Positions 13,369-17,993 of a stretch of DNA of 18,580 bases are shown here, piece after piece. Location of the stretch: assembly GCA_026014495.1 (NCBI GenBank), contig JAOZIF010000152.1, forward strand, positions 1 through 18,580, read 5' to 3'. Positions within the stretch are counted from its first letter, which is position 1; each line of letters begins with the position of its first letter. Source of the stretch: Candidatus Bathyarchaeum sp. (GTDB lineage Archaea > Thermoproteota > Bathyarchaeia > Bathyarchaeales > Bathyarchaeaceae). Under the pieces are notes generated by a model. The model was given only the letters and a program-made list of their open reading frames with translations, was not told the origin of the DNA and did no database searches. The position numbers and the translations under genes are program-made.

Positions 13369-15114
13369 TTAGAGCACCTCCTGTATGCTTCGCGCAAGAG
13401 CTTCTGGATTAAACGGTCTACCGTCATACTTCAAAATTTTAAAATCAACTGATGTAAGAAGCTGTTCTTGTATTATGCTGGACAGCTGAGATGTCTTGTT
13501 GTTTTCTACCACAATCGTCTTTTTGGCTAACTGCAGTATGTCCCGAACCTTACTGACTGGAAACGGACAAAGATACAATATCTGTAAATAATTAACTTTG
13601 ACGCCTTGTTTGCTAAGAACATTCATGGCTTCCAGTATTGGACCCTTTGTTGAACCCCATCCAATAACCGTTGCAGTTGCCTCTTTTGGGCCATAAAACT
13701 TCACCGTCTCATAGCCTTCGAGCTCCCTAGTTAATGCATCAAGTTTCTTGAAGCGCTTATCAGCCATTTTAGTGGACAACACAGGGTCCTCGGTTGTGTA
13801 TCCAAGTTCATTGTGCTCGTCTGCGTTTGTTCGAACTATTGCTCCTGTTGTTCCAGGCAGAGCTCTGGCCGAGATTCCATTTTCTGTGAACTTGTGTCGC
13901 ATGTAATCTTCTTTTCCTGTGTATTTGTTTTCGGTTACAAGTTGTCCACGGTCAATTCTTGTTTTGTTCTGGTCAAAAGGCTCAGTTGTTCCATTACTCT
14001 CTGCTAAATATTTGTCCGAAATGACTATTGCGGGAATCTGAAATTTTTCTGCCAGATTAAACGCTTCGACAGTATTGTAGAAGCATTCTTCAACGTTTCC
14101 GGGAGCGATTACAACTCTTGGAAATTCTCCTTGAGATGCATGTATGGCAAATCTAAGGTCCCCCTGTCCGGTGTACGTGGGAAGTCCTGTGCTTGGTCCG
14201 GGTCGTTGCACTAAAACTATGACGGGCGATGTTTCGCTCATGCCTATCATGCCCAGTGCTTCGGTCATCAGGCAAAATCCGCCTCCCGATGTGGCAGTCA
14301 TTGCTCTTGCTCCAGCATATGACGCACCTGCAACCATGTTTATTGCCGCTATCTCGCTTTCGGTTTGGATTACAAGCATCTTGTATTCCCTATCTAGGGG
14401 TGCAAGAAAATGAAGGATAGACGTGGCTGGCGTCATGGGATACGCTGCATAGAATTTACATCCTGCATTGAGGGCGCCTAAGGCTATTGCCTCGTTTCCG
14501 GCTACAAAAATTCTGTTTTTTCCTTCTGACCCTGTTTTCTTGAGTTTATATTCAAAATCGTTCCTGTAATTTTCTTTGGCGTAACTGTATCCTTGTTTTG
14601 CGGCTTCTATGTTTAGCTCAGCAACTTTTGGTTTGAATGTGTCGCGTAATACTTGGTTTAAAATTTCTGGGTCATAATCTAGCAACGCGTTTGCTGCGCC
14701 TAAGGCAACAGTGTTCTCCATGATTGATGGTCCATCCAGCTCCTTGACTATCTTTCTTAGCGGCACATGATACTGGTTTATGTCATCTCTTCCAAGTTCT
14801 TCTTTAGTTACCGTGATTTGGTCTTGGTCGTAGATTACTCCAGCACCTGAGACAAGCTCGTCCTTATGTAAAAGTATGGTTTGTTTGTCTAGGGCTACAA
14901 GAAGTTCAACTTTGTCTGCTTGGCAGTAAACCTTTTGGTCGCAGACTGTGACTGTGTAAAAATTGTGGCCTCCCCTTATGAGGGATTGGTAATCGTTGGC
15001 ACCAAAAACGTAGAGTCCTCCACGCAGGCATGCTTTGGCGAAAAGAAAACCTGAACGACTTATTCCTGCTCCTGCCTCTCCGCCAACCATCAAAGAAAGC
15101 TTGTTAACTGTCAT
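13369..15114 (-). CDS. korA: 2-oxoacid:ferredoxin oxidoreductase alpha subunit (fused gamma+alpha)
   Basis: GGEAGAGI, DYQSLIRGGHN, GNEAIALGA, YPMTPA, QTESEIAAI, ATSGGGF.LM.E, RPGPSTGLPT, KYDGRPF. Confidence 0.94.
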   Translation of the reverse strand: MTVNKLSLMVGGEAGAGISRSGFLFAKACLRGGLYVFGANDYQSLIRGGHNFYTVTVCDQKVYCQADKVELLVALDKQTILLHKDELVSGAGVIYDQDQITVTKEELGRDDINQYHVPLRKIVKELDGPSIMENTVALGAANALLDYDPEILNQVLRDTFKPKVAELNIEAAKQGYSYAKENYRNDFEYKLKKTGSEGKNRIFVAGNEAIALGALNAGCKFYAAYPMTPATSILHFLAPLDREYKMLVIQTESEIAAINMVAGASYAGARAMTATSGGGFCLMTEALGMIGMSETSPVIVLVQRPGPSTGLPTYTGQGDLRFAIHASQGEFPRVVIAPGNVEECFYNTVEAFNLAEKFQIPAIVISDKYLAESNGTTEPFDQNKTRIDRGQLVTENKYTGKEDYMRHKFTENGISARALPGTTGAIVRTNADEHNELGYTTEDPVLSTKMADKRFKKLDALTRELEGYETVKFYGPKEATATVIGWGSTKGPILEAMNVLSKQGVKVNYLQILYLCPFPVSKVRDILQLAKKTIVVENNKTSQLSSIIQEQLLTSVDFKILKYDGRPFNPEALARSIQEVL

Positions 15115-15132
15115 CTAAGCTCACACCCGAGT

Positions 15133-15390
15133 TTAGACTATTTTCTCGTTTGTTTTCAAATTAATTATGTGAATAGCATTAAATGGGCACGCTTCAGCAG
15201 CTTTCTTGTGGCAATCAAGCTCGTCTAGGTCTACGGCTTCTCCATTAGCGACCTTTTTTGCGCCTTCAACATGAGACTTTGCGTCCACATCAGAAAGGTC
15301 AAACTTGGAGCATAACTCAACACATGCCCCAAACCCCTGACAAACAGTGTAATCTATTATCACTCGAAATTTAGCCATAAAATCCACCAT
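15133..15390 (-). CDS. Single-cluster ferredoxin, probably [3Fe-4S]
   Basis: C17-Q-G-F20-G-A-C23-x3-C27 ... C60 ... C68-P; first gene of the oxidoreductase operon. Confidence 0.88.
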   Translation of the reverse strand: MVDFMAKFRVIIDYTVCQGFGACVELCSKFDLSDVDAKSHVEGAKKVANGEAVDLDELDCHKKAAEACPFNAIHIINLKTNEKIV

Positions 15391-15502
15391 ATAACATTCT
15401 GATTTTTAGGCTATATCATTTACTATATTACGCGATTGTTGCCTTTTTTTGTAACCTTTAAGTGTATTTTCCCATTTTATATCTAAATGAGAGGCTTCTG
15501 CT

Positions 15503-16516
15503 TTGAAGGAAGCAATGTTCTACAAAAAATTAGACAATAACGTGGTTAACTGCAATCTGTGTAGCCACCGTTGCCAAAAAATTGCTGACTCTAAAACAGG
15601 AATATGTGGAGTCAGAAAGAACCTTGACGGCAAACTGTACAGTCTAGTTTACGGCAGAGTTGTGGCTAGGTCAGTTGACCCCATAGAAAAAAAGCCGCTG
15701 TTCCAGTTTCTTCCGGGCTCCATGTCATATTCTATCGCAACAGTTGGCTGCAATTTTAGATGTGATAACTGCCAAAATTTTGACATTTCTCAGCTACCTA
15801 AAGAACGCAATGTAATCGTTGGGCATGAAACTTCTCCTGAAGAGATTGTTTTCGCAGCTAAATATAACAACTGTAAAAGCATAGCCTACACTTACAGTGA
15901 GCCCACAATCTTTTTTGAGTACGCCCTTGATGTGGCTAAGTTGGCGAAAAAAGAGGGTCTCAAGAATGTTTTTGTGACAAACGGTTACATCACAAAAGAG
16001 GCATTAATGGAGATTGCTCCATACTTGGACGCCGCCAACATTGACCTGAAAAGTTTCAGCGACGACTTTTACAAGAAAAGATGTGGGGCACGCTTGCAAC
16101 CCGTGCTGGATTCGATTGAACTCTACAAAAAGTTAGGAATCTGGACCGAGATAACAACGTTGATTATTCCAACATTAAATGATTCAGAAGATGAGTTACA
16201 AAAAATTGCAGAATTCATCAAAAACGTGGGCGAAGACACGCCTTGGCACATCAGCCAGTTCCATCCTATGTATAAGCTTCCGGACTTGCCACGCACGCCA
16301 GTTGCAACTCTAAGAAAGGCAAGACAAATCGGATTAGACGCAGGATTAAGATACGTTTACGAGGGAAATGTGCCCGGAGAAACAGGCGAAAACACATACT
16401 GTCCAAAATGCAAAAAACAGTTAATCCAAAGATTTGGCTATAGCATTCAGCAAAACAACATCAAAAACTCCAAATGTGTCTATTGTGGAACAAAAATTGA
16501 TGGTGTGCACGAATAG
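15503..16516 (+). CDS. amrS: AmmeMemoRadiSam system radical SAM enzyme
   Basis: CNLCSHRC...CGVR, DPIEKKPLF.F.PG, GCNFRCDNCQN (CxxxCxxC), SIAYTYSEPTIFFEY, W.EITTL.IP, NT.CPKC; TATA-like TTTTATAT near 15476-15482. Confidence 0.93.
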   Translation: MKEAMFYKKLDNNVVNCNLCSHRCQKIADSKTGICGVRKNLDGKLYSLVYGRVVARSVDPIEKKPLFQFLPGSMSYSIATVGCNFRCDNCQNFDISQLPKERNVIVGHETSPEEIVFAAKYNNCKSIAYTYSEPTIFFEYALDVAKLAKKEGLKNVFVTNGYITKEALMEIAPYLDAANIDLKSFSDDFYKKRCGARLQPVLDSIELYKKLGIWTEITTLIIPTLNDSEDELQKIAEFIKNVGEDTPWHISQFHPMYKLPDLPRTPVATLRKARQIGLDAGLRYVYEGNVPGETGENTYCPKCKKQLIQRFGYSIQQNNIKNSKCVYCGTKIDGVHE

Positions 16517-16530
16517 TTAGTTGGTGTGTG

Positions 16531-16558
16531 TAACACAATAAGACACCTAACACAATAA
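16531..16558. repeat. Direct repeat TAACACAATAA x2 (period 17)
   Basis: Exact 11-mers at 16531-16541 and 16548-16558, just after the amrS stop. Confidence 0.6.
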
Positions 16559-16584
16559 ACGGTTCAATATCTGGATGGGTTATG

Positions 16585-16671
16585 GAAGAGCGCACATAAA
16601 AGAAAAGGGCAAAAACTGATCTTGGAGATCGTCCCCCTTCTTCTATCGTGGGTGGAAACTGTGCGCTCTTC
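16585..16671. repeat. 87-bp element bounded by a perfect 12-bp inverted repeat; folds as a long hairpin
   Basis: GAAGAGCGCACA (16585-16596) and TGTGCGCTCTTC (16660-16671), with internal AGAAAAGGG/CCCTTCTTCT and GATCT-TGG-AGATC stems. Confidence 0.65.
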
Positions 16672-16796
16672 ATTCAATACTTTTTGGTGTTGCAGATTTA
16701 ACAGTTCAGAATTAACACTCTATATCCTAACGTAGTCTAAGTGTTCACAATTGGATGTGAAACAAAAAGTGGGTCTGGTTTTGTTTACTTTATCTA

Positions 16797-17423
16797 TCAG
16801 AAACCTAGAGCGTCGACCAGAAATGATAAACCAAAGTAGATTAGAACTGCCCCAAAAAGCGCGACCATCAGGCGGTATCCCTTGTGTCTTAAAATTTTGG
16901 CTCCTTTTTTTGCGAAGCCAGCAACTAGGATAAGCCATGCATAGTCCACCCAAACGTGGCATAAATACATGAAGATGACGCCTGCTAAGCCCGCAAACTC
17001 TAGAGATATGAAAATGAGGTTTGCGCCTATAGTGAGCCACCAGATGATAAAGTATGGATTTAAGCCTGTTAGTGCAAAGCCAATTAGAAAGAGATTTTTG
17101 GTGGTTTTTTGTTGTGTGTTTGTTTTGTGTGTTTCATGTATTGAACTGCGTATTTGCATGGCGCCAAAGATTATGAGTGCTGCTCCGCCTGCGGCTCCGA
17201 CTGCGAGCCTGATTGTGGGTTGGTTTGCGACGCTTAGGAGTCCTAGGGCCAGTAGCATTACGAGTGTGAATTCGATTATGGTGTGTGCTACGGAGAAGAT
17301 TATGCCGCTTTTTGTTCCTGAGCGTATGCCGTGAGAGATTGTTACAAAGAATAGCGGTCCGGGGGCTAATGCGCCTGAGGTGGTTAGGATAATGACTGTG
17401 GCTGCGAAGTTGAATATGTCCAT
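16797..17423 (-). CDS. LysE/RhtB-family exporter; start revised to ATG17423
   Basis: MDIFNFAATVIILTTSGALAPGPLF, G.RSG...SVAH...E, GFALTGLNPYFIIWW. Confidence 0.9.
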   Translation of the reverse strand: MDIFNFAATVIILTTSGALAPGPLFFVTISHGIRSGTKSGIIFSVAHTIIEFTLVMLLALGLLSVANQPTIRLAVGAAGGAALIIFGAMQIRSSIHETHKTNTQQKTTKNLFLIGFALTGLNPYFIIWWLTIGANLIFISLEFAGLAGVIFMYLCHVWVDYAWLILVAGFAKKGAKILRHKGYRLMVALFGAVLIYFGLSFLVDALGF

Positions 17424-17526
17424 GAATGATGAAAATTGTGTTGTGAATATGAATGTTCTGTATGCTGTTTGGTTTTGTGTATTTGTGTTGTACACAACTA
17501 CAACAATGCTTATTACGTATTAAGAT

Positions 17527-17538
17527 TTAATATATTAA
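17527..17538. promoter_or_regulatory. Palindromic TATA-like element between divergent lysE and the small membrane gene
   Basis: TTAATATATTAA is a perfect 12-bp palindrome 25 nt upstream of ATG17564. Confidence 0.5.
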
Positions 17539-17563
17539 TTATGGAGCACAAAGAGGCAAAAAC

Positions 17564-17803
17564 ATGAGAGCAACAGCCATCTTCCTCGCCTTTTTCATGC
17601 TATTCACAGCTGCATCACTTGCGGTTCCAATTCCACTATTCCCCGGAAACACAATCAACGCAGTTTCCACAATACCCTCAGAATACATCGAATATCTGGC
17701 AGCCTTAACAAACGGGCTAACCTATGGGTTCATCGTCTGGACCGTATTCTTTTTGGTTGACAAAAAATTAGAAAAATCAATGTCAATAAACTCCAAAAAA
17801 TAA
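17564..17803 (+). CDS. Small membrane protein (79 aa, two hydrophobic segments)
   Basis: ATG after GAGG; hydrophobic residues about 4-22 and 44-65, PLFPG linker, basic C-terminus. Confidence 0.78.
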   Translation: MRATAIFLAFFMLFTAASLAVPIPLFPGNTINAVSTIPSEYIEYLAALTNGLTYGFIVWTVFFLVDKKLEKSMSINSKK

Positions 17804-17860
17804 CCTACCAAACCACCCACACACAAAACCGTCCCTTCTTTTTCTTCGTTCACACAAAGA

Positions 17861-17926
17861 GGGGTCTGCCAGCCTTATAGTCTTCATTCCCGTTAAGGTC
17901 GGTCTGGGACGGCTACATCATCCCCC
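17861..17926 (-). ncRNA. Box C/D 2'-O-methylation guide sRNA; D' guide predicted to target the 23S rRNA G2251 equivalent (P-loop)
   Basis: Minus strand parses as GGGGG | C box AUGAUGU | 12-nt guide AGCCGUCCCAGA | D' CCGA | 11-nt linker | C' AUGAAGA | 12-nt guide CUAUAAGGCUGG | D CAGA | CCCC. It has a terminal G/C stem, two 12-nt guides, and TATA-like TTTATTTG (17956-17949) about 25 nt upstream. Confidence 0.85.
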
Positions 17927-17939
17927 AGTAATGGGACAG

Positions 17940-17993
17940 CATCCCAGACAAATAAAGTATTTGAAACACATCCCAGACGAACAAAATCTTTGA
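17940..17993. repeat. Degenerate 25-bp direct repeat (period 29) overlapping the sRNA promoter
   Basis: CATCCCAGACAAATAAAGTATTTGA (17940-17964) vs CATCCCAGACGAACAAAATCTTTGA (17969-17993), 21/25 identical. Confidence 0.7.

Follow-up and report, generated by a model that had tools for sequence, protein, structure and literature searches.

The window analyzed here is an 18,580-nucleotide stretch of DNA from a Candidatus Bathyarchaeum sp. genome. A 385-nt gap of the window, bordered by a plus-strand ORF on each side, harbors a 66-nt element whose minus strand, from 17926 to 17861, reads GGGGG AUGAUGU AGCCGUCCCAGA CCGA CCUUAACGGGA AUGAAGA CUAUAAGGCUGG CAGA CCCC. The G+C content of the element is 57.6%, compared with 39% and 37.5% in the 200-nt flanks. 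We compared the element with the features used here to recognize archaeal box C/D small RNAs (sRNAs), namely spacers of ~12 nt, a total length of 50-70 nt and a guide complementarity of ~10 bp in which N+5 is paired, and found internal D' and C' boxes, spacers of 12 and 12 nt, a total of 66 nt and a closing stem. A first-pass annotation of the window had described a GC-rich island with the full C/D layout, two 12-nt guides and a GGGG/CCCC stem at this place, and the minus-strand sequence confirms that description. The parts of the element are listed in Table 1, where the homologues are the 40 distinct sequences of our alignment A1, and R1 is the covariance model that was built from it.

Table 1. 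Parts of the predicted sRNA and of its upstream region, given as positions in the window
Feature	Position	Strand	Basis
TATA-like box CTTTATTT, -31 to -24 from the first G	17950-17957	minus	Positional A/T peak in 30 loci
Whole predicted box C/D sRNA, 66 nt	17861-17926	minus	Covariance model R1: 87.7 bits, E = 1.5e-20, at 17859-17928
Terminal stem, 5' strand, GGGG	17923-17926	minus	Sequence; G-C pairs kept in 35-40 of 40 homologues, covariation absent
G after GGGG; with A and U of box C, would-be 3-nt K-turn bulge	17922	minus	
Box C, AUGAUGU (consensus RUGAUGA)	17915-17921	minus	G-A-U-G-A-x-G (near-)invariant in 40 homologues
D' guide AGCCGUCCCAGA, 12 nt	17903-17914	minus	Antisense to 23S C2248-C2257; core GCCGUCCCAG invariant in 40 homologues
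Box D', CCGA	17899-17902	minus	C.GA invariant in alignment of 40 homologues
D'-C' linker CCUUAACGGGA, 11 nt, variable	17888-17898	minus	Holds most substitutions and indels of the alignment
Box C', AUGAAGA	17881-17887	minus	AUG..GA invariant in 40 homologues
D guide CUAUAAGGCUGG, 12 nt, genus-specific	17869-17880	minus	Candidate target tRNA-Thr(UGU) C28-A37
Box D, CAGA, lineage-wide variant of CUGA	17865-17868	minus	C.GA invariant; A at position 2 in at least 90% of 40 homologues
Terminal stem, 3' strand, CCCC, then pyrimidine/T-rich tract (UCUUU)	17861-17864	minus	

All four boxes deviate from the consensus solely outside the G-A dinucleotides, a peculiarity already pointed out in the first-pass annotation, and in the alignment these dinucleotides are invariant. 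In the terminal C/D motif the deviations fall on position 7 of box C and position 2 of box D, so that the tandem sheared G-A pairs predicted for the kink-turn are untouched. The CAGA form of box D allows a U-A pair with position 5 of box C in 35 of the 40 homologues, where most C/D RNAs have U-U. In other families, box D' takes the form CUGA, or CAGA in one sequence, and the register of the alignment is unchanged.

It could be argued that such a motif set is a product of chance, or that it belongs to something other than an RNA, such as a conserved site in the DNA or a piece of coding sequence. The pairs of the terminal stem are kept among the 40 homologues with no covariation, and a search of the window with Rfam 15 at gathering score gave no match, both of which are compatible with this explanation. 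However, no layout with a stem of at least 3 pairs occurred in 10 simulated genomes of the same size (first-order Markov), and dropping the stem requirement gave 0.4 matches per simulated genome. Furthermore, conservation extends through the class and has sharp edges at the RNA ends, the overlapping ORFs are merely short, implausible minus-strand ones that appear spurious, and invariant boxes and guide combined with a variable linker are the signature of a C/D sRNA. A chance or non-RNA origin of the motifs is, hence, extremely improbable. Note that the fold energy of the sRNA is unremarkable (MFE z = -1.0); given this and the stem without covariation, the case rests on conservation of motifs and guide, as is usual for the C/D RNA class.

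The absence of an Rfam 15 match at gathering score also bears on the word "unannotated" used in the first-pass annotation, which holds in this respect. When the scan of the stretch was made permissive (E up to 10), the sole C/D family reported was RF00095 (snoPyro_CD), with 12.9 bits against a gathering score of 45 and E = 6.7, and the families of yeast snR67 and human SNORD31 were absent. RF00095 shares the general archaeal C/D layout, its alignment reaches just the 5' half of the element, and membership in this family is ruled out by the Rfam criterion (12.9 < 45 bits).

A relaxed regular expression of the full layout, which would miss sRNAs with degenerate internal boxes, found just three sites in the 2.19-Mb genome: the sRNA of the window, a second copy of it, and one canonical sRNA. 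This number suggests a very small guide repertoire, as is also found in other mesophilic archaea. The canonical sRNA lies on the minus strand at C194:30033-30086 and has the boxes GUGAUGA ... CUGA ... AUGAUGA ... CUGA. Its D guide, GAUGGAGCGACU, forms 11 Watson-Crick bp with CGUCGCUCCAUC near the 16S 3' end of the relative G005, a site in the decoding region that we take to be the top of helix 44.

We then consider how the element is distributed. With BLAST, the stretch has homologues in 23 of the 24 further genomes in the genus and in the majority of families of the order; the similarity extends into the promoter region in close relatives, and in distant ones it is confined to query positions 34-101, i.e., the RNA itself. 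Model R1 found matches in 106 of 151 genomes of the order (80 of 104 when high-quality genomes are counted) and in 62 of 151 genomes of the class, with one copy in most genomes. Throughout the alignment, the G-A of all four boxes, the D' guide core and the CCC of the stem are invariant, and the linker and the D guide are the variable parts. In a scan of named genome records with a pattern of C box plus guide, most of the matches listed were chance matches in G+C-rich bacteria, and the carriers among the matches listed were labelled Bathyarchaeia or Bathyarchaeota; one record so labelled has an sRNA identical to that of a genus member. As judged from these searches, a continuous sRNA family is traceable inside Bathyarchaeia; outside the class, the boxes and the guide alone are common to archaeal P-loop guides.

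Upstream sequences of the 30 loci compared differ from one another, and their A/T content peaks at -29 to -24, reaching 97-100% at -28 to -26. This peak fits an archaeal TATA box followed by a start at or near the first G, and the TATA-like box that the first-pass annotation had assigned to the element is located accordingly; it would be expected to act as the promoter. Upstream of the sRNA, the minus strand of the region 17927-17992 contains two tandem modules 29 nt apart, with starts at 17978 and 17949. Each module consists of a T-rich stretch followed by GUCUGGGAUG(C)UGU and resembles the 5' end of the sRNA, GGGGAUGAUGU. The module lying between the TATA-like box and the start of the RNA is kept in many loci of the genus, and in the relative L011 TATA plus 5' end are clearly duplicated in tandem. 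The upstream modules look like vestiges of such a duplication of promoter and 5' end.

Other copies of the sRNA were observed in the same genome and in relatives. Contig C78 (C78:1-2895, 2.9 kb) aligns over its whole length to window positions 14999-17926 at 71% identity, and its genes are in the same order. At the contig end (C78:2829-2895), on the minus strand, it carries another complete copy of the sRNA, with CUACAAGGCUGG as the D guide. This contig stems either from a segmental duplication or from a second species of the genus that was binned together with the first (MAG contamination is 2.3%). One sRNA copy is the rule among relatives, as in the single-contig genome G005. In addition, copies truncated to the 5' half recur across the genus and in other Bathyarchaeia (C115:288-314, minus strand, in the own genome; L008:2048-2071, L037, L039, L042, L045, L053 and L161 in others). 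They have their own TATA-like box, GGGGAUGAUGUAGCCGUCCCAG, a conserved ...GCUUAGUAAUUUUUU and a T-run, and boxes D', C' and D are missing. Several of the truncated copies carry point changes in the guide or in box C, which are invariant in the full-length copies. The truncated copies could be decaying relics or could give rise to a short antisense RNA.

Next, we examined the target of the D' guide. An LSU rRNA search of the own MAG found no assembled 23S or 16S rRNA, and the 23S sequences used were those of six relatives, i.e., five members of the genus and one genome from another family. Positions are given in E. coli numbering based on MG1655 rrlH, in which CUGGGGCGG begins at 2248. In all six relatives the P-loop reads GCUGGGGCGGCA, and the D' guide forms 10 contiguous pairs with C2248-C2257, of which the one at G2253 is a G-U. 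Counted upstream from box D', the fifth guide nucleotide (N+5) lies opposite G2251. The ten pairs, the wobble and the position of N+5 proposed in the first-pass annotation are thereby reproduced on the rRNA of these relatives. On the other hand, 4.2% of shuffled guides had an equally good site (at least 10 bp, at most one G-U) somewhere in 16S plus 23S, and the complementarity by itself is merely modestly unusual. The target call therefore rests mainly on conservation, and its weight comes from a guide that is invariant throughout the class and a target that is universally invariant. Taken together, the comparisons indicate that this Bathyarchaeia element is genuine and represents a small guide RNA with wide conservation, whose most likely role is to direct 2'-O-methylation of the P-loop guanosine G2251. 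We are confident that the minus strand of the locus holds a box C/D sRNA gene of 66 nt that has a promoter of its own and a D' guide predicted to specify Gm2251.

The D' guide, however, has a second complementary site of which the first-pass annotation was unaware. A variable hairpin of 16S rRNA, presumably helix 26, has the 5' strand GUUGGGAUGGCU, and this strand rather than the P-loop alone might be the real or an additional substrate within the genus. In G005, the closest relative, 11 contiguous pairs can form there (9 Watson-Crick and 2 G-U), with an A-U pair at the place where the P-loop gives the G2253-U wobble, and G009 and G019 have the same hairpin sequence as G005. Across 25 genomes of the order, however, the hairpin is variable, with matching changes in its own 3' strand. 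The duplex with the guide is disrupted at N+5 or at an adjacent position in most families, whereas the guide core is invariant in 40 of 40 homologues, and even within the genus the hairpin of G016 is already mismatched with the guide. Crenarchaeal sRNAs with the same guide have, moreover, been assigned to the P-loop in the published work. We thus regard the 16S hairpin as quite improbable as a genuine substrate; its pairing appears to be a lineage-specific, possibly fortuitous secondary match and not a conserved target. The interpretation of the element as a box C/D guide for Gm2251 is supported with this addition.

Gm2251 is among the few ribose methylations common to all three domains, and in bacteria it is the product of the protein RlmB, while eukaryotes and some archaea use guide RNAs to make it. 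The corresponding nucleotide (E. coli numbering) is the target of yeast snR67, human SNORD31 and bacterial RlmB. Whereas snR67 and SNORD31 are nucleolar snoRNAs and RlmB is a stand-alone protein, the window RNA is an apparent archaeal sRNA, and its closest counterparts are found in other archaea. Methylation of G2251 was predicted in three archaeal species (Dennis et al. 2015, BMC Genomics 16:632, PMC4644070). The supplementary table of that paper contains sequenced, RNA-seq-derived sRNAs with the core GCCGUCCCAG, namely Pyrobaculum calidifontis (Pca) sR36, Thermoproteus tenax (Tte) sR107 and Ignicoccus hospitalis (Iho) sR410. The guide contexts are ...AGCCGTCCCAGT CTGA in Pca sR36, ...GAGCCGTCCCAGT CTGA in Tte sR107 and GGGG TGTGAGGA CGCCGTCCCAGA GCGA ... 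in Iho sR410.

These three sRNAs have the identical 10-nt core next to a D or D' box, with a U facing G2253 as in the window. Iho sR410 resembles the window sRNA further in having the guide at the D' position and GGGG/CCCC stem flanks, whereas the guide of Pca sR36 and Tte sR107 is at the D position. Their partner guides differ from the D guide of the window, and their boxes are nearer to the consensus (GUGAUGA, CUGA). The source organisms are hyperthermophilic Crenarchaeota with dozens of sRNAs. Boxes and guide alone are shared with these crenarchaeal P-loop guides, and the RNAs are too short to show further homology. The kind of RNA, its target and even its guide sequence are, hence, already published from other archaea; in the literature searched, we found no papers on C/D sRNAs of Bathyarchaeia.

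A different picture emerges for the D guide. In other families of Bathyarchaeia, and in single contigs labelled Thermoproteales and Methanomethylicales, the sRNA has a dual-guide form with the same D' guide and box arrangement, and within Bathyarchaeia this form also has the CAGA box D and the GGGG/CCCC stem. Its D guide is ACUCAUGACGGA or a close variant, which forms a duplex, with one G-U, with ACCGUCGUGAG of 23S rRNA (E. coli 2590-2599) and places N+5 on U2593; the genus of the window has CUAUAAGGCUGG instead. Guides of the U2593 type also occur on separate sRNAs, i.e., Pca sR17 and Mka sR68. The comparison indicates that the genus of the window replaced an ancestral U2593 guide by CUAUAAGGCUGG.

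Within the genus, positions 2-7 of the D guide counted from box D are invariant, and positions 8-10 are variable. We searched the 23S rRNA of five genus members and the 16S rRNA of G005, and no site pairs consistently with the D guide. The best 23S match, near E. coli position 637, was rejected, since it falls within an expansion hairpin that varies and the site lacks conservation. Complements of the D guide in the whole genome were as numerous as expected by chance. The first-pass annotation had been unable to assign a target to this guide, and comparison with 16S and 23S of relatives and with the 27 detected tRNAs yielded a single candidate, tRNA-Thr(UGU), which is a weak one.

In this candidate pairing, the D guide would methylate the anticodon arm of tRNA-Thr(UGU), and the RNA would be a dual rRNA/tRNA guide. 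The own tRNA-Thr(UGU) forms 10 contiguous bp through C28-A37, with one G-U for the window copy and Watson-Crick pairs throughout for the C78 copy. On the 27 detected tRNAs, shuffled guides were as good in 0.8% (window copy) and 0.23% (C78 copy) of cases, but these values rose to 5.9% and 1.2%, respectively, when rRNA was included in the search space. Of the 21 copies in the genus, 11 preserve all 10 bp, their guide position 9 being U or C (either can pair with G35), and two more preserve 9 bp. In contrast, the tRNA is 100% identical across the genus, yet 8 of the 21 copies have the guide variants CUAAUAGG, CUAAAAGG and CUUAAAGG, whose pairing with it is down to 6-7 bp. Furthermore, N+5 falls on C31, within the anticodon stem. 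To our knowledge C31 is not a 2'-O-methyl site, whereas C32 is a known one. A function of the D guide on this tRNA is, therefore, rather unlikely. We also considered that the variable guide positions might track ANN-reading tRNAs, and this was rejected, since tRNA-Asn and others have different anticodon stems.

Alternatively, the D guide may be idle in the genus and act as a 12-nt spacer that maintains the geometry of the sRNP. The core AGGCUG might in this case persist through partial pairing with UAGCC at the 5' end of the D' guide, or might not yet have decayed. The lack of consistent pairing with 16S and 23S sites of five genus members and the free variation of positions 8-10 are in agreement with an idle guide. 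Nothing convincing was found when we looked in the own genome for a separate sRNA with a U2593 guide, which fits a loss of that function. In the minimum-energy fold UAGCC is paired with GGCUG, and inspection of the alignment by eye showed a similar possibility for the ancestral D guide, whose GACGG could pair with CCGUC in the D' guide, but the UAGCC/GGCUG pairing is without statistical support (z = -1.0). Six invariant positions beside box D, in contrast to a freely varying linker, suggest selection, and the match to tRNA-Thr beats most shuffles; both speak against an idle guide, to which we give roughly even chances.

The second arm of an ancient dual guide for G2251 and U2593 might have been retargeted in the genus from the peptidyl-transferase center to the anticodon arm of tRNA-Thr(UGU). 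We consider such retargeting unlikely; if true, one RNA would tie modification of the ribosomal P site to a specific tRNA modification at the unusual C31 or at C32.

For the D' guide, the predicted reaction can be described by analogy with characterized archaeal sRNPs, and the genome encodes the proteins involved. Fibrillarin and Nop5 are encoded side by side on contig C65, and the genome carries two genes of the L7Ae family. There is also a weak second match to the fibrillarin family (28 bits), containing one in-frame TAG, on the minus strand at C84:12135-12626. The 66-nt sRNA would be transcribed from its own minus-strand promoter, and both the terminal C/D kink-turn and the internal C'/D' motif would be sites of L7Ae binding. 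The two sites would be bridged by a Nop5 dimer, which would position two copies of fibrillarin, and the duplex of the D' guide with the P-loop (C2248-C2257) would put the G2251 ribose into the fibrillarin active site for 2'-O-methylation. The D guide, exchanged in the genus, may be idle or retargeted in this complex. The anatomy, the conservation pattern, the target pairing and the sRNP protein genes all fit a C/D guide for Gm2251.

Model R1 could serve to annotate this sRNA family; otherwise, the finding is an ordinary one that opens no new question. Its meaning lies in what has been kept: the mostly mesophilic, uncultured Bathyarchaeia are predicted to retain a dedicated, class-wide guide for Gm2251, though the motif scan of the genome gives just three C/D layouts. 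Such retention supports the view that, where guide-dependent modifications are lost, the one in the P-loop is among the last to go.
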